DNA of 64,000 bases from an uncultured Candidatus Sumerlaeota bacterium (GTDB lineage: Bacteria > CAYMEV01), in the NCBI GenBank assembly GCA_964389675.1, contig CAYMEV010000008.1, positions 43,084 to 107,083 on the forward strand, given 5' to 3'. The notes beneath the pieces were generated by a model. It was not told the origin of the DNA. It saw only the letters and a program-made list of their open reading frames with translations, and did not search any database. Shown here in pieces: positions 777 through 27,300 of this stretch. The position numbers were made by a program, and so were the translations under genes. The first letter of the stretch is position 1; every line of letters starts with the position of its first letter.

Positions 777-809
777 ATAAAATACACCTTCAATGCTAAA
801 TACCCCTGC

Positions 810-2989: not shown

Positions 2990-3033
2990 AAGATACTTTT
3001 AACACAGTCTGTCCCTTTGGCAACAATTAAATA

Positions 3034-3948: not shown

Positions 3949-4071
3949 CTAAGAAACCTCTCAGAAACATGTCAGGTGGTTATAATACTTTAAGGCATCA
4001 GAATATCAAATAAAATATTGATTAATCCCGGCATACAGCTGGTTATTCAAGGGGAAAGACAAATTATAATT

Positions 4072-7000
4072 TCAGGCCTGGCTGCTTCTGCTTAGTTTAT
4101 CAATACTTTTTTTATAGATGATCCTGGGTTTCTTTTTATAAGCCAGCTCGTAGAAATTTATTGCTGAAAGCCTGTATTGATCATTAAGGGTAAGAGTGTA
4201 GAGTTCTGAATATATATCAGCACTCTGATAATCTTCAATATCCTCCGAAAGCAATTCTTTCAATTTTCTCACAGCTGAGGGTTTATCCATTTTGCCCATT
4301 ATTCTGCAGGATTGAATTTTTGCGTTCATTATACCGGTATGATTATCTGTCTCTATTGATATGCGGAGAGCTTCATCATTTATCACTTTTGCATCATCAT
4401 AGATCTTCCTGTCAAAGAGGATCCCTGCTTTACTGAGCAGGCAGGCTGTTAAAAACGGGTTTTTAGCCTTCAGCTCCCTGAATATACTGATTGCAAGATC
4501 ATAGTATCTTTCAGCCTGTTCATAATCTCCGCACTCCTGGTATACATCTGCCAAATTTCCTTTTGCAATGCCCTGTTCACGCTTATCCCCTATATCTATT
4601 GCGATCTCCAGCTGAACATTGAAGCATTCGATTGCTTTTTCATAATTCCCGCAGTGTTGAAATACAATCCCCATATTCGCCACAGCATTCCTGATACCCC
4701 TTTTATCACCGATATCCTCTGACAAACGCCGCTGGATCTCATAATATTTCAGGGCTTTCTCATATTGGCCGGTTCTTGAATATACTACGGCGGTATTATG
4801 CAGTGCTACACCTACTCCCTCTTTGTATCCAATTTCCTCCGATACCTTCAGGTGCCTGTCAAAATACTCCAGAGCCTTTTCATATTCGCCGAGCCTTGAA
4901 TACACTATGCCGGTATTGCCGTATGTAATACCTGTACCCTGTTTGTCGCCAATCTCTTTCAGTATTGAAGAAACTCTTGAAAAACATTCCAGTGCCTCAT
5001 TATACTGTCCCAGCTTGTTGTATACATTTCCCAGATTTCCCATGGCATTACCGTATCCCTTCTTATCATCAATGCTTTCACAGATATCAGTACATATTTC
5101 AAAGCATTCCACTGCTTCTTTATACCTTGACTGCTCGAAATATATAGTCCCGATCTTGTTAAAGGCCTGGCTAAGCCCTTTTTTGTCATTTATCCTGTTG
5201 CACAGGTCCTTATACCTTTCATTCCATATTAAGGCCTTATCAAACTGAAAGCTTTTATAATAATAATTTACAATACTGTTCATTGTCTCAGCCATTACTG
5301 GATCAATTTTAATCCTCTCTGCAATTTTCAGGCTCTGATCAAAGGATTCTTTTGCTTTATTGAAATTACCCGTTTTCAGGAGGATATTTCCATTTATATT
5401 AAGCATTTTTGCAAGGGATATTTCCCTGTTTGAAACCTCAGCTGTTTTTATAGCCTCAGCAAGCAGTTCCATCACATCCTCCCACTTTCCCAGTATCTCC
5501 ATGGATACTGCCTTTTTCAGCTTTATATCAAGGATCTCATCTGTATCAGATTTATCAAGCAGGCCCAGGACAATATCATAATTTTTTATCGCTCTTTCGT
5601 TAAAATAAGCCTTTTTGGCATTATCACCGCAGACCGTATAATACTGTATTGCCTTTGCCCTGTTACCACCCTCAAGAAAATGATATGCAGTCTCCTCAGC
5701 ATAAAACAGCGGATATTCAGTACCAATTGCTTCAAGGGATTCTGCAAGCTGCAGGCTTGTCTTTTTTTTGTCAGTTATCGTTTTTTTAACCAGATTCTTT
5801 GTAAGCATACTGCAGAAACCATAATTTACGCCTGCTGCTGTCCTGGAGGCCTCGAGGACTTCAAGCCTTTCAAGTTCAATGAGCATCCTTGCTGAATCCA
5901 TGGGGGAAATGCTTCGTATTATCTTCACTATTGCATCTGCGGAAAGGTTGATTCTCAGAAGGGACAGTACCTGGAGAATATTCTTTTTGTCCTCATCCTC
6001 ATTCAGCCTCTTTATTCTTTGTCTGATAATATCCTGGAGGCTTTCCGGTATATCACTTTTTTTTATCTTTTTTGAAAGGTCCCAGAAAATTCTACCTTTT
6101 TTGATCAGGTTCTTATCAATAAGCGATTTTATCAATTCTTCGAGAAAAAAAGGATTACCCCCGACCCTTTCCCTGATCCTTGCAATCTTCTCCCTTATGC
6201 TGCCGCCTGTACATTCTGCACCAAAAATATTTTCAATGTATTCCCGCACTGCTTCATTATCCAGAGGAAGAAGATCCAGCCTTCCAGCCTGTTTCAGCGA
6301 AAGCAATTCAGAAGCCGGGCTTTTTATTTTGAGCCTGTTCTCATTTATATTTGCATATATAAGCAGGTTTGGTCCATCCTTTCCTTGAAGTGCAGTTCTG
6401 TGCAGTATGCCCTTCAGTATGTCTACAGACCCTTCATCAATATACTGAAGGTCATTTATAAAAATAATGCTGGGCGCATCCTGACTGAATGCAAATTCAA
6501 TTATCATATCTGAGAGCATCCGTTCAGTGATCTCCTTCTGCAGTTTGGGATCGTCATATAATTCAAAGATCTTATAACCCTCAAGCAGTTCAGAACCATG
6601 AATCAGGTGAAGAAGGTACTGGCCGTATTTATCAGTGATCTCACGGGAGGAAAGGATCAGTACCTGGTGCAGGATCTCTGCCATGGTTTGATAAGGCCTT
6701 GCATCTCCCTCCATGGCGCTTGCTTCAAAAAAATTAATGTCGTTCAGGCGGCAGTATTTCTTAAACTCCGTAAAAAGCCTTGTTTTCCCTATTCCTACAG
6801 GCCCATGGCATATAATGATATTTTTGCCTTTCCCGCTGAACAGATGGTGCCTGAGGAATTCAAGCTCCTTTTTCCTGTTAATAAATGCATTACCGAGGAC
6901 ATAACTGCTTTTTGTATTAGAGGTCTCAAACTCAATTCCACTGTCAAAATCAGCCCTTAAATCATCTATGATCTCTGAACAGTGTCTGTATCTGCTGTCT

Positions 7001-7740
7001 GTCCGGTATGATGTCATCTTTCCAATTATATTCCTCAGGGGTTTTTGCTTGATCTTAAGCAGCATCTCTTCATGATATATGCTGTATCTGTCCTCATTGC
7101 CGAGCACCTCGAGGACTGCTCCTTCTTTTCCTGAAAAGAAAGTGAATCCTGCAAGCATCTCATAAAATACAAGCCCGAGAGAAAATATATCCATAGAGGT
7201 GTTTACATTTCCCTTCAGGCCATCAGGAGACATATACTGCATAGTCCCCTTAAGCAAATTGTCATTTACCCGTGAGAAGGCTGAAAAGCCGAAATCAAGC
7301 AGTTTTATGCCATTTGTTAAAAGCATGATATTTTTCGGTTTGATATCTCTGTATATTATATTTCTACTGTGTATATATTCCAGAGTCCTTAAAATCTGAA
7401 CAATAATATCAACTGCTGTGCCTGCACCCCATTTTTGCCCGCTTCCTGTTTTCCCTGACAGCAGGCCGCCCTTCAGGTACTCCATCACGATAAAGCAGTT
7501 GTCATCATCATGTCCGAATTCATATACCTGTGTCAGGTTCGGATGCTTCAGCCTTGTCATAATATCATATTCATTTTTAAGCTCATTTATGCCATTCTTT
7601 CCTTGCATAGCCAGAATGCTGTGCTTAATGGTCTTGAGGGCAAATGGTATATCATCATTCAGGGTATCTTCAACAAGGTATACCATCCCCATACCGCCAT
7701 GCCCCAGTTCCCTGACGATCCTGTACCTGTTACCGATCAT
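4072..7740 (-). CDS. Ser/Thr protein kinase - P-loop NTPase (AAA_16/STAND-like) - TPR repeat protein, paralog 1
   Basis: Kinase motifs GHGGMG, ALK, YRDIKPKN, DFG. Walker A GPVGIGKT, Walker B IIFINDLQ, 'VGGNPFFLEEL'. C-terminal 40-aa TPR-like repeats. Confidence 0.9.
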   Translation of the reverse strand: MIGNRYRIVRELGHGGMGMVYLVEDTLNDDIPFALKTIKHSILAMQGKNGINELKNEYDIMTRLKHPNLTQVYEFGHDDDNCFIVMEYLKGGLLSGKTGSGQKWGAGTAVDIIVQILRTLEYIHSRNIIYRDIKPKNIMLLTNGIKLLDFGFSAFSRVNDNLLKGTMQYMSPDGLKGNVNTSMDIFSLGLVFYEMLAGFTFFSGKEGAVLEVLGNEDRYSIYHEEMLLKIKQKPLRNIIGKMTSYRTDSRYRHCSEIIDDLRADFDSGIEFETSNTKSSYVLGNAFINRKKELEFLRHHLFSGKGKNIIICHGPVGIGKTRLFTEFKKYCRLNDINFFEASAMEGDARPYQTMAEILHQVLILSSREITDKYGQYLLHLIHGSELLEGYKIFELYDDPKLQKEITERMLSDMIIEFAFSQDAPSIIFINDLQYIDEGSVDILKGILHRTALQGKDGPNLLIYANINENRLKIKSPASELLSLKQAGRLDLLPLDNEAVREYIENIFGAECTGGSIREKIARIRERVGGNPFFLEELIKSLIDKNLIKKGRIFWDLSKKIKKSDIPESLQDIIRQRIKRLNEDEDKKNILQVLSLLRINLSADAIVKIIRSISPMDSARMLIELERLEVLEASRTAAGVNYGFCSMLTKNLVKKTITDKKKTSLQLAESLEAIGTEYPLFYAEETAYHFLEGGNRAKAIQYYTVCGDNAKKAYFNERAIKNYDIVLGLLDKSDTDEILDIKLKKAVSMEILGKWEDVMELLAEAIKTAEVSNREISLAKMLNINGNILLKTGNFNKAKESFDQSLKIAERIKIDPVMAETMNSIVNYYYKSFQFDKALIWNERYKDLCNRINDKKGLSQAFNKIGTIYFEQSRYKEAVECFEICTDICESIDDKKGYGNAMGNLGNVYNKLGQYNEALECFSRVSSILKEIGDKQGTGITYGNTGIVYSRLGEYEKALEYFDRHLKVSEEIGYKEGVGVALHNTAVVYSRTGQYEKALKYYEIQRRLSEDIGDKRGIRNAVANMGIVFQHCGNYEKAIECFNVQLEIAIDIGDKREQGIAKGNLADVYQECGDYEQAERYYDLAISIFRELKAKNPFLTACLLSKAGILFDRKIYDDAKVINDEALRISIETDNHTGIMNAKIQSCRIMGKMDKPSAVRKLKELLSEDIEDYQSADIYSELYTLTLNDQYRLSAINFYELAYKKKPRIIYKKSIDKLSRSSQA

Positions 7741-7815: not shown

Positions 7816-10800
7816 TTATTTAGATTTTTTCTTGAGGATCCTGATTCTTTTTTCAAACTCATACAGCGGCTCCTCTTCAAAAAGGCCGCTGTAGAGCCTG
7901 AGTGCCTCTTTCCTGTATTTTACCTCTTCCTTCAGCATATAGAGCTGGAAACAGATCTCCGCCTTTTCTCTTCTGCTCCGCTCCTCATTCAGCATTTCCA
8001 GCATTCTGCGTACTGCAGATTCTGTATTGCTTACAGCCATCATCCTTATCCTCAGCATCTCCATGTTGAAAAGAAGCGCTTTATCCCTCAGCCCCGCCCC
8101 TGTTTTCTCCAGTTCCTGAATACAGCTTTCTGCATCCTCATACTCCCTGTTATCCAGATGCAGTACGGATTTATCACAGAGGAATTCGGCAAGAAGGCTC
8201 TTTATACCAAGAGCTCTGAATATATCAGCAGCCTTGTTAAAGCATCTCAATGCCATGTCTTTCCGACCCAGCTCATAATAAGCCTTGCCCATATTGCCGG
8301 ATGCGAAGCCAATACTGCGTTTATCCCCGGTTTCTTCCGCTATTTTTTCCCTTACCTTAAGCATTTTCAGTGCTTCCTGGAAATCTCCCCTGTAAAGAAG
8401 GACACCGCCTATATTTCCTGATGCAGCCCCTTCGCCCATCCTGTCACCAATCTCTTCTGATATCTTTTTATAGATCTCATAGGATTTCAGGGCCTTGTCA
8501 TAATGCCCCATTGCACAGTATACAGTACCCATATTGGCTGTTGCTATGCCTGTGCCTCTTCTATCCCCTATCTCTTCTGCAACCTTTTTCCTCTTTTCAT
8601 GGTAATCAAGCGCTTTGTCATATTCACCCAGGTCATAATAAAGTATCCCGAGGTTTCCATATGCAATACCTGCCCCTATCTTGTCCCCGAGCTCCATGCT
8701 CAGCCTCATGTTCAGAAGATGGTTGTCCAGTGCCTTACGGTAGTTGCCCAGGTCATAATATATAATGCCTATATTGCCTGCGGCAGAGCCTATACCCCTT
8801 TTATCGCCTGTCTCTTCCGAGATCTTCTTATATACCTCGTAGCATTCAAGGGCTTTTTTGTAGTCACCCTGATTATTATATACATTGCCCATATTGCATA
8901 CAGCTTTGGCAAAGCCCTTTTTATCACCTGCTTTTATCGAGATATCCCTGTAAGATATGAAGCAGTCAATAGCTTCATTGAACCTGGACTGTATATTATA
9001 TATATTGCCAATATTATTAAGTGCAGTGGAATATCCCCGAATATCGCCGCACTTTTCCCATACATGCCTGTTATTATTGAATATATCTATAGCAGTTTCA
9101 TACTGTGATTTATAAAAATAATAATTTATAATGTTTGTTATAGTCTCTGCAAGAAGCTTATAATTGTTTTCTGATTCAGCAATCCTTCTGCTCTCCTCAA
9201 ATGAACACCCCGCAGATTCAAGATCCCCCTTCCGAAGAAGGATACTCCCCCGTATATTATTTATCTTTCCCAGTATCAGCCTGTTTTCTGATCTTTCAGC
9301 AATAAGAGCGCAATCTTTTAGTATTTCAAGCGCATCATCCCATTGGCCAAGTTCTTTCAGGGATATCGCCTTTCTAATAAGCACACCGAGGATCTCAGCC
9401 ATATCTGAGCCTTTTTTCAGCTTAAGGGCGATATCATAAAACCTTACAGCCTTTTCATTAAAATACCTGGACTGAGCATTATCCCCGCATTTTATATAAT
9501 ATTCCACAGCTTTATCTGTATTTTCCCCTTTTTCATAATGATAGGCTGTCTCTTCTGTAAAAAGGTCCGATACAGCACCATAATTCCTGTCAAGTATGTC
9601 TGCAAGCAGGCTGTGGAGTTTCCGGCTGTTTTTGACAGTTTCCCTTACAAGGTATTTGACTGTACTGCTTGCAAATGAGTACTTGAATGAACCGGCGGTC
9701 CTTATCGACTGCATTATCTCAAGCCTCTCCAGGTCAAGGACTATCCTCATTGCATCAGAATCCGTGGTGCTCTTTATTATTGCCCTTATAAGCCCTGATT
9801 CCAGGTCAGTCCTTAATAGTGACAATATCTGCAGGACATTTCTGTAATCCTTTTCTTTCATGATCTTTTCAAGCCTTGCTTTGGCTATCTCAAGAAGATT
9901 GGGTGGTATGTCCATATCATCAATATCCCTGGTCAATCTCCAGTACCCCCTGTCCTTTATGATCAGATCGTTTTCAATAAGGGATTTTATAAGCTGTTCA
10001 AGGAAAAGAGGGTTACCGCTTACCATATCGCGCATTTTTCCTACAGATTTCCTGATGCTCTCATCTATGAACCTGGACCCGAAAATCTTCTCAATAAACT
10101 CAGCCACTCCATTCCGGTCTAAAGGATGCAGGTCAGCAGTCTTTAATCCTTCCATAGTGAAGAACCCGGCAAATTCCTGTTTTTTTTCTATCTTTCCCTC
10201 ATCAATATTTGCAATTATAATAAGGTCCTTCGATCCTGTCTCTGAGATGTTCATTTTGTGGAGCAGTACCCTGAGCATCTCCAGAGAACCTTCATCTATC
10301 CACTGAAGGTCATCAAAGCATATTGCAGCCTTGTATCTGCTCTCCCTGCAGAACCCCAGAATAAAATCCGTTGCGTTCTGGATAATTATATCCTTTAAGG
10401 CTTTAGGGTCATCTGACCCATCCGGATCCGGAAATTCAGCCAGGTATGTAAAACCCGGAAGGATATGTTTCAGGTTTGTGCCATACCTTTGAAGCAGTTC
10501 CCGGGATGACAGGATTATCATCCTTTCAAGCATTTCACATATCGAGTAATACTCCTTTATCCCGCCTTCCATGCATGTGCTTTCGAAATAAGGAATGGAA
10601 TTGAGCCTGCAGTGTTTCTTCAGCTCCCTGAACAGCCTTGTTTTACCTGCACCGGCAGTTCCCCTGTATATGAACATGCATGGGTTCCTGCTTCCGGCAA
10701 GGCCGTCCTTAAGGATCTGCATTTCCCTGTGCCTGTCGGCAAAAGCATTGCCGAGAACATAGCTTTCCTTTGTCTCTGAGGATTCATACTCATAGGCCCT

Positions 10801-11634
10801 GTTGAAGGATTTATTTATATCGCCAATTATATCAGAAAACTTTTTATACCTGTCCATTGGATAATATTTCGTCATTCCATCTATTATTGCCCTGAAACCG
10901 GAACTGCCTGCAAGGCCCAGCCTTTTTTCCTGAAAATCTGAATAATGGTCCGGGTCCTGAAGTATCTGTATTATATCACATATCTCAATCCCCCTGCCTC
11001 CAAAAAAAGGCTCTCCTGCTGTCAGTTCAAAAAAGAGAAGGCCGAGGGAGAACATGTCCATGGAATATTGAATATTGCCGCTAAGCGCTTCAGGGGAGAT
11101 ATACAGCAGTGTCCCTTTAACATTTTTCTCCCTTCCCTGCAGCAGCCCTGATAACCCGAAATCCAGAAACTTCAGCCCATGCTCTGTTATCATGATATTA
11201 CCCGGCTTGATGTCCCTGTATATTATATCTCTGCTGTGGACATACTCCAGTGCCCTCAGCATCTGTATCATATATTCGATACATGATTCTAAAGGCTTTT
11301 TTTTGCTTTCCTGAATAATATCTGAAAGCATCCTGCCCTGAAGGTACTCCATTACTATATAGTAATTGTCGCCATCCCTGCCGAAATCAAATACCTGTGT
11401 GAGGTTAGGGTGCTTCAGCCTTGTCATAATCTCATATTCGTTCTTGAAGCTGTCAATCCCTGAATGCCTGGTGCTTGAAAGGACATTTTGTTTAATGGTC
11501 TTTACTGCAAAAGTAATATTATCCCTCAGCATGTCTTCTGCAAGGTATACAATACCCATTCCCCCCTGCCCAAGATTGCCGATGATCCTGTAACGGGAGT
11601 CAATTATGCTTTTCTCTGCATTCCATGGAAACAT
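7816..11634 (-). CDS. Ser/Thr protein kinase - P-loop NTPase (AAA_16/STAND-like) - TPR repeat protein, paralog 2
   Basis: GQGGMG, AVK, YRDIKPGN, DFG; Walker A GTAGAGKT; Walker B AICFDDLQ; SGNPLFLEQL; 40-aa repeats. Confidence 0.9.
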   Translation of the reverse strand: MFPWNAEKSIIDSRYRIIGNLGQGGMGIVYLAEDMLRDNITFAVKTIKQNVLSSTRHSGIDSFKNEYEIMTRLKHPNLTQVFDFGRDGDNYYIVMEYLQGRMLSDIIQESKKKPLESCIEYMIQMLRALEYVHSRDIIYRDIKPGNIMITEHGLKFLDFGLSGLLQGREKNVKGTLLYISPEALSGNIQYSMDMFSLGLLFFELTAGEPFFGGRGIEICDIIQILQDPDHYSDFQEKRLGLAGSSGFRAIIDGMTKYYPMDRYKKFSDIIGDINKSFNRAYEYESSETKESYVLGNAFADRHREMQILKDGLAGSRNPCMFIYRGTAGAGKTRLFRELKKHCRLNSIPYFESTCMEGGIKEYYSICEMLERMIILSSRELLQRYGTNLKHILPGFTYLAEFPDPDGSDDPKALKDIIIQNATDFILGFCRESRYKAAICFDDLQWIDEGSLEMLRVLLHKMNISETGSKDLIIIANIDEGKIEKKQEFAGFFTMEGLKTADLHPLDRNGVAEFIEKIFGSRFIDESIRKSVGKMRDMVSGNPLFLEQLIKSLIENDLIIKDRGYWRLTRDIDDMDIPPNLLEIAKARLEKIMKEKDYRNVLQILSLLRTDLESGLIRAIIKSTTDSDAMRIVLDLERLEIMQSIRTAGSFKYSFASSTVKYLVRETVKNSRKLHSLLADILDRNYGAVSDLFTEETAYHYEKGENTDKAVEYYIKCGDNAQSRYFNEKAVRFYDIALKLKKGSDMAEILGVLIRKAISLKELGQWDDALEILKDCALIAERSENRLILGKINNIRGSILLRKGDLESAGCSFEESRRIAESENNYKLLAETITNIINYYFYKSQYETAIDIFNNNRHVWEKCGDIRGYSTALNNIGNIYNIQSRFNEAIDCFISYRDISIKAGDKKGFAKAVCNMGNVYNNQGDYKKALECYEVYKKISEETGDKRGIGSAAGNIGIIYYDLGNYRKALDNHLLNMRLSMELGDKIGAGIAYGNLGILYYDLGEYDKALDYHEKRKKVAEEIGDRRGTGIATANMGTVYCAMGHYDKALKSYEIYKKISEEIGDRMGEGAASGNIGGVLLYRGDFQEALKMLKVREKIAEETGDKRSIGFASGNMGKAYYELGRKDMALRCFNKAADIFRALGIKSLLAEFLCDKSVLHLDNREYEDAESCIQELEKTGAGLRDKALLFNMEMLRIRMMAVSNTESAVRRMLEMLNEERSRREKAEICFQLYMLKEEVKYRKEALRLYSGLFEEEPLYEFEKRIRILKKKSK

Positions 11635-11875
11635 GCTGTAATTATCTCATTTTTTTGCCAAAACTCCAAATGATTTATTGATCAGTGCATATATTGTTCC
11701 ATCATAATACTCAGCAGCGCCAGGTCAGACTGCTATCATAGAGACCTTCAGTTATCTTATGCCGTAAAGGGGTCATCTGGCGGCTCATGTTCTTATTTGA
11801 TTCTTATATCGGTATTATTACAGAATAAAAGGGCGTGGAAGGTGACATCTGAACCCGTTTTCCCGGATATTGGAG

Positions 11876-14800
11876 TTATTCTGCCTTCAATTCCTGCATG
11901 GCCTTTTTATATGAGAATTTCTTATGCTTTTCATAGAGTGATCTATATGATCTGATGGCTTTTTCCCTGTACTGATTTTTTCCTTCAATGAAATAAAGCT
12001 CATAATATATCATTGCCTTTGCCTCTTCATCCCTGGCGTTTTCAAGGAGTTTCAGAAGGGAAGCAGATGCAGATACCCTGTCATTCACTGCAAGGACCCT
12101 AAAACCCTGTATCCTGGCCCTGTTGATATATTCTTCATTCTCCAGCTCCTCTGCAAGTTTCATGGCTTTTTTGTTTGCTTCAGCTGCTTTGCCTGTACTC
12201 CCGTTCCTCAGCAGGATTTCTGCACTCTTCAGGAGGTAATCAATGATATCAGGGTCTTTTATCCCGATCTCCCTGAATATCCCCAGGGATTTATCATAAT
12301 TCAGCAATGCTTTATCATATTCTCCGGCAAGATAGCAGACATTCCCCAGGCTTCCGAAGGCATTTGCAGAAGCATGCCTGTCCCCTGTTTTATCAAAGAT
12401 GCTGCACGCCTTCTCGATCTGCCTGAAAGCCTGCTCAAAATCCCCTGTCTCCGCATAAGCAATGCCTATATTAACATCTGTTATTCCTGCTGCCATTTTG
12501 TCACCTATCTCTTCAAATATCTCCCTGCCTGATTCAAAGAAACTTATAGATTGCCTGTAATTGCCCTGTTCTTTATATATATTTCCGATATTATTCCCTG
12601 CGATCCCCAGGCCCCTTTTATCCCCGGTCTTCCTGGCTATCCCTGCAGAGAGCCTGTAATTCTTCAGTGCCTTCTTCAGCCTGCCCTGGTAATAATATAT
12701 GTTCCCGATATTCAGTGCAGCATTCTTTATCCCATCCTGATCATTTATCTCCTCAGAAATCCTCTTATATTCCTTAAAGCATGACAGAGCCTTTGAGGTC
12801 TTCCCCTGGAAGTAATAGATGCTTCCGAGATTGCCTGATGCAGCTCCTGTACCCTTCTTATCTCCTAATTCTTCTGATATCTTTTTGTAAATATTATAAT
12901 AATGCAGGGCTTTGGCATAATCTCCAAGAGATGAACAGGCACTGCCCAGGTTCCCGCAGGCTATTCCGGTCCCCCTTTTATCCCCTATCTCCTCTGACAG
13001 GTCCCTGTCGATCTCATAACACTCAAATGCTTTGGCGAAATTCCCCTGATTGTAATAAACGTTGCCCTGATTCCCTACTGCATTCCCGATGCTTTTCTTG
13101 TCATGAAGCTCCAGGGCTATATACTGGCACTTCTTAAAGCATTCAATAGCTTCGGTATAATTGGACCTTGCAAAATGAATATTTCCAATATTATTGAGTG
13201 CCCTCAGGTAACCACTTCTGTCGCCTGCCCTGAGAAAGTAATCCCTGTTTTTTGAATGGTACTTCATTGCTTCATCCATCAATGACTGATTATAGAAATA
13301 AGAGCCGAGATTGTCATAACTTTCAGCTATAAGAGCCTTATTTCCTGTGTTTTCTGAAATTTCAAGGCTTAGGTCAAATGCTTTTTTGGCTTTGTTTATC
13401 TCGCCTTTCTGGAGATATATCCTTCCTGAAAGGCTGTTTATCTGAGCCAGGATAATCTGTTTGCCGGCATCTGATGCATGTTTTCTGCAGTCATCCAGGA
13501 CTGACAGGGCTTCATCCCATCTTCCCAGTACCTCAAGAGATCTGGCCTTGCAGAGCATTATTTCCAGTCTCTCATCTATAATACTAAGATTCAGGCTGTA
13601 AAGCATAATATCATAATATTTTACTGCCTTTTCATGGAAATAATCCTTTCTTGCATTATCAGCGCATTTCCTGCAGAAAAAAAGCGCTCTGTCATTAACT
13701 TCCGCCTCTATATAATGATATGCTATTTCTTCATTATACTGGCCTGAATCACCGATCATCGCCTCCATATTCCGTGCAATGTCGAGGTTAATGCTTTTCC
13801 TCTCTTTTACGCTCCTGTTTACTATATCCTTTATGATGCTTGAAGTGAATGAATAATAGAAATAATTCTCTACACTGTGCTGCTGAAGTATTTCCATCCT
13901 CTCAAGCTCAATAAGGGCCTTTGCAGGCTCTATACCGCATATCTTCCTGATCATTCCTATAAGGGTCTCAATTGGCAGGTCGACCCTCAGTAAAGCGAGT
14001 ATATGCAGGATATGCTCCCTGTTCCTGTCTTTCAATATCCTTTTTACCCTTGTTCTTACAGTATCCAGAAGATTCCTGGGTATCTCAATGCCCTCCGCCG
14101 GTTTCAAAAGCTTCCAGTATCTGTTATCCTTGATTATTACATTGCTTTCGATCAGGGATTTAATAAGCTCCTCAAGGAAAAGCGGGTTGCCTCCGACTTT
14201 TTCTTTGATGAACTGCACGCTTTCACTTATGCTCCTGTCAATAAAACGGGAACCGAAAACATTTTCAATATACTCACTTATGCCCTCCCCGTCAAGGGGG
14301 CCCAGGTCATGTATCCTGATGCCTGCATTTTCAAGCATGCTCCTGACTACCCTGCTCTTTATCTTCTCTTCATTGATATTCGCATAGATGCAGATATTAA
14401 TCCCGCTGTTGATATTAAGCCTGCTTAAAAGGGCTTCGAGAAGCACTGCTGAGCCGTCATCTATCCACTGAAGGTCATTGAAGTAAATTACAAACCTCTT
14501 TTGTATCTCTCCATAGAACTCTATTATATAGTCTATGATATTCTGAATTGTTATCTCTTTCAGCATCATCGGGTTATCCATAATTTGAGGGGGCCTGAAC
14601 CTGCTCAATCTGTCTGAATCCGGAAGCATAAGCTTCAGATACGGGCCTGCCCTGCCCAGAAGCTCATCAGATGAATATGTCATCATCTGAAGAAGAATAT
14701 CACCGAAATAATGGTATTCTCTTATCTCCCCCTCCATACAGCTGCTGTCAAAAAAGAGTATGTCACCCAGCCTGCAGTATTTCTTAAATTCAATAAAAAG

Positions 14801-15784
14801 CCTTGTTTTACCGACCCCTACATTCCCGTTATATACAAAAAAATGCTGATCATCTGCTTTTGCCAGCTGGGTCTTTAGCTCCCTGAATTCGTCTTTCCTG
14901 TCTGCAAAGGCATTTCCCAGCACATAACTTTCCTTTGTCTCGGATGTCTCGAACTCATAATTCCTGCCTGAACACTGATTAATGTCCGAGATGACCTCCG
15001 AACAGGCCTGATACCTGTCTTTCGGGCTGTATTCGATCATTCTTCTCACAATGTTCCTTGTATCTGTGTCCTTTACCAGATTCAGCCTCTTTTTCATAAA
15101 GGCCATATATTTGTCCCTTTTATACAGCATGTTTATGATGCCTGAAAAATCCTCCGGCGATGTGCTGAAGAACATCTCTCCTGTAAGCATCTCAAAGTAA
15201 ACCAGCCCAAGGGAGAATATATCCATTGAATAGCCTACTTTCTTGTTTATAGCCTCAGGGGAGAAATACTGCATGGTACCCTTCACCTTGCTTTCGCCTT
15301 TCAGTTCAAAACCGGCAAGGCCAAAATCCATAAGCTTTACAGAAGTGCCGTCAACCATAATATTGCCAGGCTTTATGTCACGGTACATTATGTTCCTGCT
15401 GTGGATATACTCTAGCGCTCTCAGTATCTGGACAAGGATATCATTGATCCGGTTTTTATCAAAATCAGTCATTAAATATTCAGAAAGAAGGATTCCTTCG
15501 AGATATTCCATTACTATGAAATAATTGTCACTGTCATTCCCGAATTCATATACCTGTGCAAGGTTCGGGTGCTTCAGCCTTGTCATCATCTCGTATTCAT
15601 TCTTAAAGCTCTTTATCCCTATCTCCTTCATTTTTGAAAGGACATCCTGCCTTATTGTCTTTAATGCAAACAGCATATTGTCCTTTAGGCTGTCCTCCAC
15701 CAGGTATACGATCCCCATCCCCCCCTGTCCGAGTTTATCTGTTATTCTGTATCTATTGCTGATAAGATCTTTCATGCAGGCCAT
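11876..15784 (-). CDS. Ser/Thr protein kinase - P-loop NTPase (AAA_16/STAND-like) - TPR repeat protein, paralog 3
   Basis: GQGGMG, ALK, YRDIKPGN, DFG; Walker A GNVGVGKT; Walker B VIYFNDLQ; GGNPLFLEEL; 40-aa repeats. Confidence 0.9.
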   Translation of the reverse strand: MACMKDLISNRYRITDKLGQGGMGIVYLVEDSLKDNMLFALKTIRQDVLSKMKEIGIKSFKNEYEMMTRLKHPNLAQVYEFGNDSDNYFIVMEYLEGILLSEYLMTDFDKNRINDILVQILRALEYIHSRNIMYRDIKPGNIMVDGTSVKLMDFGLAGFELKGESKVKGTMQYFSPEAINKKVGYSMDIFSLGLVYFEMLTGEMFFSTSPEDFSGIINMLYKRDKYMAFMKKRLNLVKDTDTRNIVRRMIEYSPKDRYQACSEVISDINQCSGRNYEFETSETKESYVLGNAFADRKDEFRELKTQLAKADDQHFFVYNGNVGVGKTRLFIEFKKYCRLGDILFFDSSCMEGEIREYHYFGDILLQMMTYSSDELLGRAGPYLKLMLPDSDRLSRFRPPQIMDNPMMLKEITIQNIIDYIIEFYGEIQKRFVIYFNDLQWIDDGSAVLLEALLSRLNINSGINICIYANINEEKIKSRVVRSMLENAGIRIHDLGPLDGEGISEYIENVFGSRFIDRSISESVQFIKEKVGGNPLFLEELIKSLIESNVIIKDNRYWKLLKPAEGIEIPRNLLDTVRTRVKRILKDRNREHILHILALLRVDLPIETLIGMIRKICGIEPAKALIELERMEILQQHSVENYFYYSFTSSIIKDIVNRSVKERKSINLDIARNMEAMIGDSGQYNEEIAYHYIEAEVNDRALFFCRKCADNARKDYFHEKAVKYYDIMLYSLNLSIIDERLEIMLCKARSLEVLGRWDEALSVLDDCRKHASDAGKQIILAQINSLSGRIYLQKGEINKAKKAFDLSLEISENTGNKALIAESYDNLGSYFYNQSLMDEAMKYHSKNRDYFLRAGDRSGYLRALNNIGNIHFARSNYTEAIECFKKCQYIALELHDKKSIGNAVGNQGNVYYNQGNFAKAFECYEIDRDLSEEIGDKRGTGIACGNLGSACSSLGDYAKALHYYNIYKKISEELGDKKGTGAASGNLGSIYYFQGKTSKALSCFKEYKRISEEINDQDGIKNAALNIGNIYYYQGRLKKALKNYRLSAGIARKTGDKRGLGIAGNNIGNIYKEQGNYRQSISFFESGREIFEEIGDKMAAGITDVNIGIAYAETGDFEQAFRQIEKACSIFDKTGDRHASANAFGSLGNVCYLAGEYDKALLNYDKSLGIFREIGIKDPDIIDYLLKSAEILLRNGSTGKAAEANKKAMKLAEELENEEYINRARIQGFRVLAVNDRVSASASLLKLLENARDEEAKAMIYYELYFIEGKNQYREKAIRSYRSLYEKHKKFSYKKAMQELKAE

Positions 15785-15849
15785 TTTTTATTTTCTGCTC
15801 CGGATATGTTCAATTATACGACAAATAAAACCAGTATTCAATTCAATAA

Positions 15850-17628
15850 TCAGGAAATCCTGATATTATCCAGAGCCCTCAGGAATTCATCACAGCTCTG
15901 GAACCTTTTATCAGGGTCCTTTTCAAGGGCTTTCATGACAATATCCGACAGCTTCCTGTCAATTCCGCTTTTTATTTCTGCAAGGGGTTTGGGGGGCATG
16001 CATGACTGCATCTCCATGATTGCAAAATCAGATATGTTCTTTATCTGATCCCTGGCAAACGGCACCCTCCCGGCAAGCATCTCATACATAAGTATGCCCA
16101 GGCTGTATATATCCGTCCTTGAATCTATATTCCTGTCCCCCCTTATCTGTTCAGGGCTCATGTATTCAGGTATTCCCAGCCCTATGCCTGCCTGGTTCTT
16201 TCGGTCCTCTATCTTTATAAGGGCTATTCCAAAGTCTGTGATCTTTGTCACCCCGTTCCTGTCAACCATGATATTGCTTGGCTTGATCTCCCTGTGTACC
16301 ATGCCATGATCATGGGCATATTCCAGTCCCTTCAATATTCCGCGGATTATTGGCAGGGCCTCCCTGCCCTTAAGGGATCCCTTTTTTTCCAGGATCTGGA
16401 ATATGGTCTCCCCATCCACATACTCCTGTATCACACTCAGGGTCTGAGGGTCAAAATGGACTATCTGGGCTATATTATAGTGGCTTAGCCTTGCCTGGGC
16501 CTTTATCTCCCTTTTGAATATCTCAATAAAATCCCTGTCAAACATAAGGGAAGGGTGGATCTTCTTTACAACAAAATTCCTGCCGAGATTTATATTCTCA
16601 GCAAAATATACTGTTGCAACAGTGCTTGCCCCGATTTCATTTATTATTTTATAGTAATGAGCAATAATATCATCAGGCCTGAACCCGGCTGAGACATCAG
16701 GTATGCTTTCAACCTGCCGGCTGCCTGCTTCAGTTTCTTCAAGGGGCATATCATCGCTGATGCATTCCAGCTTTGCAATATCAATGATTTTCTGCTCATA
16801 GTCTTCTGAGTCCCTGAATAAAGCAGATCTCAGCTGAGAAACAAACTCCGATGCAGTTTCATACCTTTCTGCAGGGTCTTTTGCCATTATCTTATTTATA
16901 ACACCGACAAGAAGCCTGTTATGTGAAAACATATTATCCGCAGGAAATACAGGGTTTTCATATATTATCTGATATGCCACTCTATGCAGTGTCTCCCCGT
17001 CAAAAGGCTTTCTTCCGAATAAAAGCATATAAGCCATTATGCCGAAACTGAAAAGGTCGCTTTTATGAGAGACCCTTTTTCCTGTAAATTGCTCCGGGCT
17101 CATGTAAAATGGGGTTCCCAGCACTCTTCCGACCTGAGTGGAATCTGTACCCGGGATTTTAGCTATCCCGAAATCCGTAATTTTTGCTACATTCTTTGAA
17201 TCAATTATGATATTGGCAGGCTTGATATCCCTGTGGACAATACCGTTTTTGTGAGCATAGTCCAGCCCGCCGGCAACCTGGGACAGTATATCCATCACCC
17301 TTTTTACATTGAACTGCCTTGATTCATCAATCAGTTCTTTCAGTGTTGTGCCGGTGATGAGCTCCATTATGATATACAGGATATTATTAGCCTCTCCCAG
17401 GTCATGAATGGTCACTATATTAGGATGAGACAGCTTTCCTGCTGTCTGGGCCTCCCTCCTGAACCGTTCCGTGAAATCCTGCCTCTCATAAGGGTCAAGG
17501 ATGTCAGTCCTCAATATCTTGACAGCAACAACCCTTCCCAGGCTCGGGTCATATGCCTGATATACTATGCCGGCTGCACCCCTTCCGATCTCCTTTTGGA
17601 TTTCATACCTGTCAATCTTAACTGTCAT
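15850..17628 (-). CDS. Cytoplasmic protein with two tandem Hanks-type kinase domains (second probably a pseudokinase)
   Basis: Domain 1: GRGAAG, AVK, HRDIKPAN, DFG, GTPFYMSPEQ. Domain 2: GASTVA, VVK, HREIKPSN, DFG, GIPEYMSPEQ. No TM segment. Confidence 0.9.
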   Translation of the reverse strand: MTVKIDRYEIQKEIGRGAAGIVYQAYDPSLGRVVAVKILRTDILDPYERQDFTERFRREAQTAGKLSHPNIVTIHDLGEANNILYIIMELITGTTLKELIDESRQFNVKRVMDILSQVAGGLDYAHKNGIVHRDIKPANIIIDSKNVAKITDFGIAKIPGTDSTQVGRVLGTPFYMSPEQFTGKRVSHKSDLFSFGIMAYMLLFGRKPFDGETLHRVAYQIIYENPVFPADNMFSHNRLLVGVINKIMAKDPAERYETASEFVSQLRSALFRDSEDYEQKIIDIAKLECISDDMPLEETEAGSRQVESIPDVSAGFRPDDIIAHYYKIINEIGASTVATVYFAENINLGRNFVVKKIHPSLMFDRDFIEIFKREIKAQARLSHYNIAQIVHFDPQTLSVIQEYVDGETIFQILEKKGSLKGREALPIIRGILKGLEYAHDHGMVHREIKPSNIMVDRNGVTKITDFGIALIKIEDRKNQAGIGLGIPEYMSPEQIRGDRNIDSRTDIYSLGILMYEMLAGRVPFARDQIKNISDFAIMEMQSCMPPKPLAEIKSGIDRKLSDIVMKALEKDPDKRFQSCDEFLRALDNIRIS

Positions 17629-17795
17629 ATGGAAAACCAGCCTGTAATCCTAAGCTATTTTCTTCAAATAGTGTCAAGTCTAATTCAGTAGTAAATTATA
17701 GTATTGTTACCTGATTATGACAATCATAAAATAGCATATAAAATAGCAGGCTTAAAGGGTTAAAGGAAATAGAATGCCGGAAAAATTCCGCAGGC

Positions 17796-18821
17796 TTATT
17801 TTATCAGGTAGTATTTATATGTACCCTTTATGCTGTTGCTGTAGCCGGGGTAATTCTTGCCAGGGCCTGCAACCTCGCATAGTACATAGTACCTGTTGCC
17901 TATCCTTACAAAGGACTGTCCCGGCTGGGGAACAGCTTCAACACCTATGAGAGCATGTTCATGAGTTTCAATAATTATTATTGATGACTCGCTGAAATTC
18001 TGCCAGAGAGAACAGAAAAGTATTGATTTTGAGTCGCAGTCGCCGCGGTTATTTATCAGCACATCAGTAGGGATATATATTCCCCCTGTCACCTTGCTGT
18101 CAACAATGGCAGGAGGTATCCTGTAATCGATCTCCTGCAGAAAGGATACGAACAATCCCAGGTATTTCTGCCTGGAATATCCATTACCTGCCTTGTAAAG
18201 AGCATTGAAACATCCCTTAAGATGAGGCAAATTCCAAAGAGACAGCTTTTTATAATCGATCTTTATAAGATCGCCATCTAAATAGAATCCTCTGTCTTTT
18301 ATCTCCTCCCCGAAAACAATAATGAAATTACTGCTGTAATAATCGCATATTGCCTTCATTGTCCTTTTCACTTCTGAATAGATGCCTGACGGGACAGACA
18401 CAGGATCAATATTGATCCTTCTGGCTGTTATGGTATATTTTATATAGCTGGAAAAGCCGCTTTCCCTGATAATCCGGTCTATCTGCCCTTTCAGCCTTTC
18501 GATTACCCTCTTTTCTGTCTCCTGCTGATTATAGCCGAATTTATCACTCAGTTCCCTGTGGGAGACCTTTGAAATATCGAATGAAACCCTCTGTTTTTTT
18601 CCTGTAAAATCGATAAATCCGTATGTGATACCATAGTAATCATTATTTTCGCTTAATTTATAATAGTTCAGCGAGCCTTTATTCCTAAGCCCCCTGTCAA
18701 GGGCTATGGGGTTTCCGCTTCTTTTGCCGCTGAACACTGCCCATGACAGCATAAACATTGTGAAAAATGCTGCAATAAATATTACCAGGCAGCTATATAT
18801 AGTTTTTTTGCTTCTGAACAT
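17796..18821 (-). CDS. Membrane-anchored hypothetical protein with transglutaminase-like (Cys-His) motif
   Basis: N-terminal hydrophobic helix. 'DVLINNRGDCDSKSILF' followed by 'HEHALIGV' and 'YVLCE' resembles the transglutaminase-like cysteine protease fold. Confidence 0.6.
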   Translation of the reverse strand: MFRSKKTIYSCLVIFIAAFFTMFMLSWAVFSGKRSGNPIALDRGLRNKGSLNYYKLSENNDYYGITYGFIDFTGKKQRVSFDISKVSHRELSDKFGYNQQETEKRVIERLKGQIDRIIRESGFSSYIKYTITARRINIDPVSVPSGIYSEVKRTMKAICDYYSSNFIIVFGEEIKDRGFYLDGDLIKIDYKKLSLWNLPHLKGCFNALYKAGNGYSRQKYLGLFVSFLQEIDYRIPPAIVDSKVTGGIYIPTDVLINNRGDCDSKSILFCSLWQNFSESSIIIIETHEHALIGVEAVPQPGQSFVRIGNRYYVLCEVAGPGKNYPGYSNSIKGTYKYYLIK

Positions 18822-18825
18822 CAGG

Positions 18826-19359
18826 CTACTGTATCCTTATAAATCCCCTCTCTGCTTCAGGTATTATGGACTGGGCCAGGTCAGCCATTCCCTGGTCGAT
18901 GATTATTGCAATGGAAATTACAACAAATGCTAAAAATATCGCAACAGCAATATTGTTTTTTATTATCTCGTCATACTCTTTTATTCTCCTGTTCATTACA
19001 GAAAAAAGCCACATCGATATACCGGCCAGGATAATGGACAGCACAGCCATAATAATGACAAACAGCATGGCAGTGCCTATGGTTGAAACCACGGTAAGCC
19101 CGGATGTCCTGCTGATCATGGAAGTCCTGATTACTGTCATAACAGGGTGAATGGCATGGCGGAGCAGTATTGCCTGGCTTAAGAGGATAGAGCCCAGCAT
19201 TATGGAAACAGACACATTGCCATCGAGAAGATGCTGAGCTTCATCTATCTTTCTGGTTATTAGAAGGTCAATCTTATAGATCAAAAATATCAGGATAATG
19301 CTCATAATTCCGGATAGAAGAACAGCAGACACACCTGTTGCAATATTTATGATATTCAT
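18826..19359 (-). CDS. DUF350-like membrane protein (two internal repeats)
   Basis: Four hydrophobic segments with duplicated '(D/E)E...(G/N)N(V/I)(S/A)V(S/A)I' motif (DGNVSVSIML and KNNIAVAIFL). Confidence 0.65.
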   Translation of the reverse strand: MNIINIATGVSAVLLSGIMSIILIFLIYKIDLLITRKIDEAQHLLDGNVSVSIMLGSILLSQAILLRHAIHPVMTVIRTSMISRTSGLTVVSTIGTAMLFVIIMAVLSIILAGISMWLFSVMNRRIKEYDEIIKNNIAVAIFLAFVVISIAIIIDQGMADLAQSIIPEAERGFIRIQ

Positions 19360-24334: not shown

Positions 24335-27300
24335 ATGTTGAAGAATAACAGGGAAATATTCTCAAGCCTCGTTAATGTTGCTGAAAATCTCAGCAGGAAG
24401 GGTCTATATCATGATGCCATCAGGGAATATAAGAGCATTCTGGGGCTTTTCCCTCATGAAAAGAAGCTTTATAATACATTGGGCGACCTTTACCAGATGC
24501 TCAGGGACTGGGATAATGCATCCAGGTACTATGCATCCTATGCAAGGGCCCTTGAGAAGAACAATTACCCCCTGCAGGCAATAGCCGTCTACAGGAAGAT
24601 CATCCGTATTAACAGAAAAGACCCGGAGATATATTCAAGGCTGGCTGATCTTTATAACAGGCAGGGTTTTACGGCAGAATCCGTTTCATTATACCAGGAC
24701 CTGGCTGCATTTTATGAGAAGCATCAGCAGACAAGGAACTCAATTTCTGTATATGAAAAGATGAATGAAATTCAGCCTGACAACCTCGAGCTGCTTGAGA
24801 ATCTTGCCGACAGGTACATTGCGGAGGGAATGAACTATAAGGCAACAGAAAAGTACCTGAAATTTGCATATTCCATGACAGCCAGAAACAATCTGGACGA
24901 TGCACTGGAGATCTTTAATAAAATATTTGAAATAGACCCGCATAACATAAATGCAAAAAAAGGTATACTGGCCCTGTTCCTGCAGAAAGGCGATTATGAA
25001 AAAGCTGAAGCTGAAATAATAAAGGCAGTTGATTCAGATGAATGCGAATATATCCTGGAAGGCATCGACTTTCAGGATGCAGAAAAGGCTGACAGGATGT
25101 TCAACCGCCTTGTCCAGTACAGCCCGGATAATACTGTCCTGCTGGAAAAATATGCATTTATCCTGTTAAAGATGACTAATTCCTCAAAATCAGAAGAATA
25201 TTTTAAATGGATAGGTGAATACTACAAATCAAAGGGCAATCTTGCCATGATAATTGAGATATTCAGCAGGGCTAAAGGCCTAAAAAAGGAATTCCTGTAT
25301 CCCTACAGAATGCTGATTGATGCATACAGCATGCTGAAACAGGAAGAAAGAAAGTACAAAACCATGAAGGAGCTTGCTTTCAGATTATGCGAATCCGGTG
25401 AATATTCAGAAGCCATAGCTGTCTTTAATGAAATAAGGCCGGGGTATTTGAATGATGATGAATCGTTAAGCTATTTAAAAACCATACCCGGCAAGCTGAA
25501 AAATACGTGCCTGATCCTGAATAACAGGAAAGGACACCCCAGGGATGACAGGACAGCTGTTAATTATTCTACGCTGAAAGATTTAAATAAACAGCAGCAT
25601 GCTGACATGACGCAAATGGATATAATGGATGCTGAATTACCTGTATATCATGACCCTGAAGCACTTGATAAAATGGCTGATGAGATCTACAGCTATTACA
25701 ATGATATAGTTAAAGAGTCTGAAAATGATGCTCTAATTTCTGATAAGCTCGCCATGCTTGAGGAAATGGAAACAGTGGATATTTTCAGCCAGCCGGGGAA
25801 ACATGCGGTTTATGACCCGAATACCCCTCTGCATCTTCTGATTAACATGAGCAATGATATAAAGAATTCCCTCAGCGGGATCATCGGCTTTCTTAACCTC
25901 CTGAAAGAGACCCCTCAGGACAATTCCCAGCTTCAGTATATAGAAAACGCCGCCATTTCAGCCAGGACCCTGCTGAATAATATGGAAAACATAGTTGATA
26001 TATGCATGCTGGAAACAGACAGGCTGACCCTGGAAACATCAAAGACTGACATGCCGGCGCTTTTAAGACAGGCGCTCGAGGCTATAAGGGCTCAGGCGTG
26101 GAATAAGAATATTGAAATTCTATATGATCAGGGCCCTGACATGCCCCGATTTGCAGATACTGATCCAGTTCAGCTGAAAAAGATACTTATAAGCTTCCTT
26201 ATAAACGCTGTAAAACATACTGAAAGCGGGGAAATTGAGCTGAAAATAAATTTTAGCCCGCATGATGAAAGGAAGGGTATCTTCAATTTTTCCATACGAG
26301 ATACAGGCCTTATAATCCGCCAGGAAAAAAAGAAGGAGATAATCAGTGTTCTTAATGAGAATGATGAGCTTAATAACAGCAGGTCGGATTATACGAAGCT
26401 TGGCCTGATACTGGCTAACCATATCCTTAGGAAGATGGGAAGCAGGATCAATTTCTCAAGCGAGCCGGACAGGGGGACAACCTATTTCTTCCAGTTAGAG
26501 ACAGAATATGATTACGGCAGGAGCCATAAAAAAAACAGGCTGAAAAACCTGAAAAAGATCCTTTTGATAGATGATAATGATGAAAGCATCAGAATCATCA
26601 AAGAGATGCTGGCAGGCTGGGAAATAGACTGCATAAGCTGTAATGGCGGATACCATGCCATAAAGCTGATTGAAGCATCAGAACCATTTGATGCAGTTCT
26701 GATCGACTATGATATGCCGGTCCTTAATGGAATAGAAACAGTAAAGGTAATAAGGAAGGACCTGAAAATACCTGCCGGCAAGCTTCCTGTCGTCCTGCTT
26801 CATAACCTGTGCGATACCGGCCCTATTGAGGCAGAATGCAAAAAGCTTGATATTTACCAGAATATTCAAAAGCCGGTTATGCCGGATGGCCTCTTTCATG
26901 CTCTAAAGAATATTATCAGCACTGAAACAGACAAAAAGGGCAATATGGATACAAAAGAAGGCCTTTTAAAGAAAACCAGGCAAGGCGGTCCTGTTATTCT
27001 AATCGCAGAGTATTTCAATATCAATATGCTTCTTCTGGTAGAATTGATCAGCAATATATATCCGGACGCTTGTATACTGAAAGCATCAAACGGGATAGAG
27101 GCAATAGAAATATTTGAAAGGGAAAGCCCTGACCTTATTCTAATGAATGTTCAGATGCCGGTCATGAGCGGAATAGAGGCCGCAAAAGCAATAAGGGAAA
27201 AGGAAAACCATTCAGATGATCATACCCCTATTATTGCACTTTCAACGGAAAAGAGGGAGAGTGAAAAAATCATATGTTCAAATGCAGGCATGGACTGGTT

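Follow-up and report, generated by a model that had tools for sequence, protein, structure and literature searches.

An uncultured Candidatus Sumerlaeota bacterium encodes, within the 64,000-nucleotide (nt) stretch of DNA that we analysed (contig CAYMEV010000008.1, positions 43,084 to 107,083; hereafter the window), a 592-amino-acid (aa) protein in which a PknB-like Ser/Thr kinase domain, predicted to be active, is followed on the same chain by a second kinase domain that has lost its catalytic base. The gene lies on the minus strand (15850..17628; ATG start and TGA stop, from the open reading frame list and its translation) and, in each of the three genomes in which it was found, the gene immediately downstream encodes a STAND-class ATPase. 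We read this tandem protein as an active kinase with a built-in, non-catalytic pseudokinase that would have a regulatory or docking role, the whole working with the downstream STAND ATPase, and give this reading a probability of about 0.5.

Two kinase domains, one of them degraded

Pfam matches Pkinase (PF00069) over two stretches of the protein (whole-protein E 8.4e-107) and finds no domain besides these two. Domain 1 (residues 8-262; 16843..17607, minus strand) and domain 2 (residues 323-588; 15865..16662, minus strand) are joined by a poorly conserved linker (residues 263-322; 16663..16842, minus strand), part of which is predicted to be disordered. Both domains align with PknB structures over their whole length, so each has the Hanks-type kinase fold, and both align end to end with the PknB/Stk1-type kinases (M. 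tuberculosis PknB, S. aureus PknB, StkP), with E values of 2e-57, for domain 1 against M. tuberculosis PknB, and 1.5e-46. Unlike those kinases, which continue from the kinase into a membrane segment and PASTA repeats, the tandem protein has a degraded second kinase domain where their sensor region would be. It has no predicted membrane segment (the highest 19-residue Kyte-Doolittle mean is 1.13) and Pfam finds no PASTA match, which bears out the initial annotation of this DNA on both counts. The protein nonetheless scores above the cut-off of the NCBIfam model for Stk1-family PASTA kinases (NF033483; 562 vs. 450), but only through the sum of its two kinase domains; the match covers positions 7-275 of the 563 in the profile and leaves the PASTA region out. 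An annotation pipeline trusting this model would probably give the protein a wrong name. In a full-length AlphaFold2 model built on a four-sequence alignment, each domain folds as a kinase, with predicted local distance difference test (pLDDT) values of 80-92 in the cores and below 50 at residues 273-313 of the linker. An alignment of single-domain homologues (A3) was also tried and dropped, as its N-lobes fell on domain 1 and its C-lobes on domain 2.

Two orthologues are available for comparison: P0002, a full-length protein of 603 aa encoded at locus L001 (54% identity), and the product of L075:5554-7317 in a metagenome-assembled genome (MAG) of an uncultured bacterium (71% identity). With a kinase-domain profile we read 24 functional positions in the six domains of these three proteins and in 591 comparison domains.

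Domain 1 carries the full set of canonical motifs that the initial annotation had listed, namely GRGAAG (residues 15-20), VAVK (34-37), HRD (132-134) and DFG (152-154), along with SPE at 177-179. Of its 24 scored catalytic and regulatory sites, only one departs from the canonical residue, the Met of the glycine-rich loop (G-loop), which is Ala, and the residues expected of a competent kinase (K37, E59, D134, N139 and D152) are canonical in domain 1 of all three orthologues. The bacterial hallmarks are retained as well (RF motif, gatekeeper Met, activation-loop Thr), and domain 1 is thus predicted to be a catalytically competent PknB-like Ser/Thr kinase. As a lead only, we note residues R10, L33 and D76 of PknB, which we take to act in its back-to-back dimer, a role that the papers searched did not confirm: alignment to PknB places their equivalents in domain 1 at R7, L30 and D76, and our reading of the alignments gives Tyr, Leu and His at these places in domain 2.

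The motifs reported earlier for domain 2 were also recovered, i.e. GASTVA as a broken G-loop (residues 333-338), the Lys (within VVKK, 353-356), HRE instead of HRD (445-447) and DFG (465-467), with SPE at 491-493. The Glu of HRE, Glu447, takes the place of the catalytic-base Asp and is encoded by GAG at 16288..16290 (minus strand; motif reading of the translation). The P+1 loop, described initially as kept, is so in part: YMSPE is intact, but the conserved Thr that precedes it is Ile. In each of the three orthologues, domain 2 has lost eight catalytic or regulatory positions: glycines 2 and 3 of the G-loop (S/A, S/A and N/E), the G-loop Met (Val in each), the Arg of the alphaC RF motif (Ile, Ile and Val), the gatekeeper Met (Gln in each), the HRD Asp (Glu in each, with codon GAG each time), the activation-loop Thr (Asn, Asp and Ser) and the P+1 Thr (Ile, Val and Val), the last of which is Thr or Ser in about 90% of the 591 comparison domains. 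The DFG Asp is lost too in P0002, which reads GFG. Kept in all three are Lys355 of VAIK, alphaC Glu374, the Phe of the RF motif, the His and Arg of HRD, Lys449, Asn452, APE, the alphaF Asp and the alphaH-I Arg. A second comparison used the two domain 2 sequences then available and 43 columns that are at least 90% conserved among 120 active relatives of domain 2; 7 columns are changed in both sequences, all of them in the G-loop, VAIK, alphaC, HRD or activation loop, and 5 are changed in one, while domain 1 is altered at 4 of the same 43.

The G-loop Met, RF motif and gatekeeper Met are hallmarks of active bacterial Ser/Thr kinases according to an atlas of these proteins, and the RF-Arg touches the phospho-Thr of the activation loop (bioRxiv 10.1101/2025.01.12.632604). 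The joint loss of the RF-Arg and the activation-loop Thr fits a domain that has left the cycle of phosphorylation-dependent activation. By sequence, a pseudokinase is a kinase domain in which at least one of the VAIK Lys, HRD Asp and DFG Asp is missing (PMC12599244), and domain 2, already called a pseudokinase in the initial annotation, falls within this definition, the HRD Asp being Glu in all three orthologues and the DFG Asp Gly in one. Domain 2 retains a complete kinase fold, but its catalytic base is gone, as are the G-loop that would clamp ATP, the residues with which activation-loop phosphorylation is read and the P+1 Thr; it is therefore most likely a non-catalytic pseudokinase maintained by selection.

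A different reading of the same residues has domain 2 still working as an enzyme, with Glu447 as a weaker or repositioned base or in an atypical reaction, which would make the protein a dual-activity tandem like the RSK/MSK-type relay kinases. Asp to Glu is the most conservative change possible, and its strict retention in the three orthologues, despite saturated synonymous sites, could mean that the carboxylate is still used. Glu is rare at the catalytic-base position (2 of 595 domains, both from the tandem kinase-pseudokinase family), and the degraded domains of other multi-kinase proteins mostly have N, G or S there. Furthermore, Lys355, Glu374, Lys449 and Asn452 are kept throughout and the DFG Asp in two of the three orthologues; domain 2 of the window protein, which retains the Lys, the alphaC Glu, the Asn and DFG, may therefore still bind nucleotide. 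An active enzyme is hard to reconcile, however, with losses that are coordinated across all three orthologues (second and third glycines, G-loop Met, RF-Arg, gatekeeper Met, activation-loop Thr and P+1 Thr), with G-loop residues so variable as to indicate relaxed constraint on ATP clamping, and with an orthologue that lacks the metal-binding DFG Asp. Catalytic-base Asp-to-Glu mutants of studied kinases lose orders of magnitude of activity. On balance we regard a catalytic domain 2 as quite unlikely and favour a non-catalytic pseudokinase.

Orthologues, selection and origin of the fusion

The tandem kinase-pseudokinase family is very small; only three members are known, each from an uncultured bacterium. 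Word-seeded and profile searches of 5.8 billion proteins, an exhaustive HMMER run against 1.84 billion cluster representatives and a scan of Joint Genome Institute (JGI) metagenome contigs together yielded a single full-length orthologue, P0002. The profile search added no member, the HMMER run gave nothing above 43% identity except P0006 (57%, over domain 1 alone), and the JGI scan gave nothing closer than 50%, with a single domain only. The L075 orthologue surfaced through loci related to the neighbouring STAND genes (STAND alignment query), having been missed by a single-sequence scan of genome contigs in which its peptide patterns were not an exact match. P0003 and P0004, which have two kinase domains, a membrane segment and PEGA, were considered as orthologues and rejected, both of their kinase domains being canonical; domain 1 of the window protein best matches their second domain, not their first.

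Within the family, domain 2 is about as well conserved as domain 1. Identity between the window and L075 proteins is 78% in domain 1, 49% in the linker and 72% in domain 2, and between the window protein and P0002 the corresponding values are 60%, 29% and 59%. The ratio of nonsynonymous to synonymous substitution rates (dN/dS, Nei-Gojobori) is 0.08 for domain 1 and 0.10 for domain 2, values to be read with dS at about 2, i.e. saturated, and dN in the linker is two to three times higher. These figures indicate that domain 2 is not decaying and is under purifying selection comparable to that on domain 1.

They also bear on whether HRE is simply a sequencing or assembly error, or the gene a decaying pseudogene. 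The initial annotation had proposed that homologues with the usual HRD in domain 2 would reveal a private mutation or an error; instead, HRE is present and encoded by GAG in all three members. A contig from an independent, second sediment metagenome run (X2) spans 16161-16328 with zero differences, the GAG codon included, so the codon is not an assembly error. With the reading frame intact and dN/dS near 0.1, we regard both the error and the pseudogene as refuted.

The two domains are only 36% identical to each other, and BLAST places their nearest relatives in different kinase lineages. Those of domain 1 are P0005-P0007, kinases of about 800 aa with 58-59% identity, one of which comes from the window's own sequencing run and has its gene in an operon alongside those for FHA, FHA-GAF-cyclase and HD-domain proteins. 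Those of domain 2 are P0121 and P0008 (51-52% identity), whose catalytic residues are intact except for an Ala at the third G-loop glycine, and for which a CD225 match (P0121) and a weak RDD match (P0008) suggest membrane anchoring. Because the nearest relatives belong to different lineages and the domains share so little identity, the tandem is, on these alignments, a fusion of two bacterial Hanks-type lineages and not an internal duplication, the second lineage having been inactivated afterwards.

Some observations on the loci of these relatives may be recorded here. The closest relatives of domain 1 at L072 and L073 lie in a conserved operon of the order FHA protein, unknown gene, kinase, FHA/GAF/cyclase, HAMP/HD and TPR. 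The genes for P0008 and P0121 are adjacent and divergently transcribed at L003 (3454-7210), with FHA and FGE-sulfatase genes nearby. We considered L003 as an unfused pair of domain 1-like and domain 2-like kinases and rejected it, since BLAST puts both proteins in the domain 2 lineage.

Kinase tandems with one or more degraded domains appear to be frequent in public protein data, making up about a third of the 151 multi-kinase proteins surveyed. Multi-kinase proteins as such are common there: the top 150 matches of the exhaustive search all have at least two kinase domains. By residue calls, 51 of the 151 multi-kinase proteins have at least one domain without the Lys, HRD Asp, DFG Asp or catalytic Asn. 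The patterns include kinase-pseudokinase, kinase-pseudokinase-pseudokinase and kinase-pseudokinase-kinase. Among the public metagenome proteins that this search contributed (P0241-P0388), P0248 (2911 aa) has a single canonical domain that comes after nine degraded kinase-like ones, and P0243 and P0244 each have four degraded and two canonical kinase domains. The few multi-kinase proteins with source names are bacterial, from Chloroflexota and Planctomycetota.

The DNA pattern for HREIKPxNIM was found at seven places in one genome each of 185,579 species: one is L075, five are unrelated single-domain kinases and one lies outside a kinase reading frame. The five single-domain kinases (L234, L236, L237, L238 and L240) belong to other bacterial phyla, and that of L236 (Verrucomicrobiae) is spread over three short open reading frames and may be a broken gene.

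The proposed STAND partner and the surrounding genes

Immediately downstream of the tandem kinase gene, after a spacer of 65 nt (15785..15849, minus strand) whose length is as first reported, the window encodes a STAND protein of 1302 aa with Pkinase, AAA_16 and TPR matches in Pfam (11876..15784, minus strand; ATG at 15784). A STAND gene follows the tandem kinase on the same strand at all three loci, and the spacer measures about 11 nt in L075 as against 31 nt in L001. In L075 the order DUF350, 341-aa gene, tandem kinase and STAND kinase is kept (64%, 48%, 71% and 61% identity respectively). In L001, where the remaining flanking genes are unrelated to the window, the gene 31 nt after the tandem kinase encodes a protein of 1334 aa that combines an adenylate/guanylate cyclase domain with AAA_16 and TPR. 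What is conserved about the partner is thus the AAA_16-TPR body; as output domain it has a kinase in two genomes and a cyclase in one. The initial annotation had linked the tandem protein to the adjacent STAND kinases; the adjacency itself is conserved, but the partner need not be a kinase. Since the partner of the most distant orthologue carries a cyclase, the mechanism common to the family cannot be a pairing with STAND kinase domains, and any conserved contact must involve the NTPase-TPR body.

The partner is the first of three STAND genes in the window, the others encoding paralogues of 1272 aa (7816..11634, minus strand) and 1222 aa (4072..7740, minus strand) with the same Pfam matches, 43% and 41% identical to the partner respectively. 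The three paralogues are old (41-43% identity over their full length), and their Walker A G-x-G-K-T and DLQWID motifs are invariant, as befits STAND NTPases with AAA_16 and TPR. Their kinase domains have YRD instead of HRD in the catalytic loop and intact Lys, Asp, Asn and DFG, and so look active. The P0002 gene of L001 has three large AAA_16-TPR STAND genes within 20 kb (1-6772 and 11844-15848), two of them upstream of it; two have an N-terminal cyclase domain and the N-terminus of the third lies beyond the end of the locus. This trio parallels the kinase-STAND triplet of the window.

In the mechanism that we propose, the tandem protein and the AAA_16-TPR STAND ATPase of the next gene downstream would function together, with domain 1 either phosphorylating that ATPase or being switched by it. 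The pseudokinase would be a built-in module that controls domain 1 in cis across the flexible linker, tethers the protein to a partner, or does both. What the sequences themselves establish is the architecture, the motif losses, the purifying selection, the fusion and the conserved adjacency; that domain 2 is inactive, that it regulates or docks, and that the protein has any physical or phosphorylation link to the STAND protein are inferences.

Several points weigh against this proposal, in addition to the conservative replacement at Glu447 and the nucleotide-binding residues considered above. Only three sequences are known, two of which (window and L075) are close relatives, and the AlphaFold2 model gives the orientation of domain 1 to domain 2 without confidence (predicted template modelling score 0.48). 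The adjacency rests on two independent contexts, since the window and L075 are closely related and share wider synteny. These genomes are rich in STAND genes (the window and the 20.7-kb L001 have three each), which raises the odds of an accidental neighbourhood. The tandem kinase and its partner each have a promoter-like site of their own, judged by consensus match only: TTGTCA, 17 nt and TATAAT upstream of the tandem kinase gene (17695..17723, minus strand; 11 of 12 consensus matches), and a match found by a consensus scan in the spacer (15841-15813, minus strand). Finally, about 17 more distant kinase-AAA_16-TPR loci, taken with 10-kb flanks, have no tandem-kinase neighbour.

Much of this would also be expected if the tandem protein were independent of the STAND genes, an ordinary cytoplasmic Ser/Thr kinase with a regulatory pseudokinase that stands beside them by chance or through inherited gene order, and the closest paralogue of domain 1 does indeed sit in its FHA/GAF-cyclase/HD operon without a STAND gene. 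Such independence is less easily squared with L001, where, despite only 54% identity and otherwise unrelated flanks, a STAND gene again follows on the same strand after 31 nt, or with short spacers (about 11, 31 and 65 nt) and the finding of no terminator-like site in the 65-nt spacer of the window. We therefore think independence unlikely, though deserving of serious consideration, and continue to favour a functional pairing. The co-occurrence with kinase-STAND-TPR genes that the initial annotation had suggested testing holds for the window and L075; it fails in L001, where the neighbour is a cyclase-STAND gene, and at the distant loci. The tandem kinase-STAND pairing is therefore clade-specific and no general rule.

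On the other side of the tandem kinase gene, directly upstream, lies a gene for a 341-aa protein with an N-terminal hydrophobic segment (17796-18821, minus strand), separated by 4 nt from a gene for a DUF350 membrane protein (18826-19359, minus strand). The 341-aa protein has no family match in Pfam, NCBIfam or PADLOC; a Cys/His-containing stretch near its C-terminus gives the impression, and no more than that, of a vague likeness to transglutaminase-like cores. Both genes occur in the same order in L075 and are absent from L001. The wider window, whose source is marine sediment metagenomes, has the appearance of an ordinary Gram-negative chromosome (Trk transporter, amidohydrolase, thiamine genes, BamB-like, TolC, MacB), and no mobile-element genes were found near the tandem kinase. 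Further along, the window encodes a 1009-aa protein with TPR, HisKA, HATPase_c and two receiver domains (24335-27364, plus strand); its gene is not at the syntenic place in a contig of a related MAG (L071), which has a 463-aa open reading frame there instead. Synteny around trkA was considered as evidence on insertion history and set aside: it locates the related MAG, but the gene left of trkA differs in L071, so that it says little.

Comparison with known kinases and pseudokinases

The initial annotation had compared the protein to the JAK family and to plant tandem kinases. Both comparisons survive as analogies only, without homology, given a fusion of two bacterial kinase lineages. In JAK (JH2-JH1) and other eukaryotic tandems such as GCN2, a pseudokinase and an active kinase share one chain and the pseudokinase regulates the kinase in cis. 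The order in JAK is the reverse of that seen here, the pseudokinase being N-terminal to the kinase and not C-terminal, and unlike JAK the tandem protein is a Ser/Thr and not a Tyr kinase, has no FERM or SH2 domain, and arose independently.

The plant tandem kinase proteins (WTK1/Yr15, Sr62TK) are closer in layout, being likewise soluble proteins without a receptor domain in which a kinase is followed by a pseudokinase, and in the plant tandem kinase/NLR pairs the gene likewise adjoins one for a STAND-class NTPase (PMC6170490; bioRxiv 10.1101/2024.08.30.610287). The resemblance is architectural only. The fusions share no ancestry, both domains here coming from bacterial PknB-like lineages, and where the plants have an NB-ARC-LRR partner, the neighbouring gene here encodes an AAA_16-TPR STAND protein whose output domain is a kinase or a cyclase; nothing we found points to common descent of the two modules.

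The same logic of parts, with kinase and pseudokinase on one polypeptide and a gene adjoining that of a STAND NTPase, does raise the idea of a bacterial counterpart to the wheat Sr62 module. The tandem kinase would be the sensor or decoy: a perturbation of one kinase-like domain, e.g. by a phage or competitor protein, would free the other to bind the STAND protein and switch it on, and the kinase or cyclase of the STAND protein would then pass on the signal. The region left of trkA, which differs between the window and the related-MAG contig L071, could be counted in its favour. However, we found no defence-specific signal, the PADLOC matches (PD-T4-6, mad6, MkoA) being generic to kinase domains. 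The surrounding genes have housekeeping roles (Trk transporter, amidohydrolase, thiamine genes) and no mobile-element genes lie close by, kinases and cyclases are signalling domains and not typical killing effectors, and the nearest solved structures are bacterial PknB kinases, with no homology to the plant proteins. We consider a defence module of this kind very improbable.

Among bacterial proteins, domain 2 may be compared with the seven described pseudokinase families (ActPs1-3, GLW, CP1, DYD and DLHK), which likewise have a Hanks-type domain with degraded catalytic motifs conserved under selection, and in each of which the VAIK Lys is substituted in some or all members (PMC12599244; bioRxiv 10.1101/2025.01.12.632604). 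Unlike these, domain 2 keeps Lys355 in all three orthologues, reads HRE, DFG and HxN and not the GLW, DYD or DLHK patterns, and has active kinases as its nearest relatives. Judged by the family descriptions, it fits none of the seven. The word 'tandem' is absent from both papers, which describe no fusion of a pseudokinase to an active kinase (PMC12599244; bioRxiv 10.1101/2025.01.12.632604).

The three downstream STAND genes, for their part, resemble the CP1/PknK type, in which a cytoplasmic kinase is combined with an AAA_16 ATPase and repeats, CP1 having been linked to the predicted ATPase COG3899 (PMC12599244). In this comparison by description they differ from that type in keeping the Lys, the catalytic Asp (as YRD) and DFG, and in having TPR arrays and not GAF or PAS domains.

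Recent reviews call bacterial pseudokinases largely unexplored. The tandem protein offers a compact, soluble test case, combining a PknB-like kinase that is predicted to be active with a selectively maintained pseudokinase and a conserved STAND-class genomic partner. If the link to that partner is true, the coupling of a tandem kinase to a STAND ATPase would have arisen independently in bacteria and plants.

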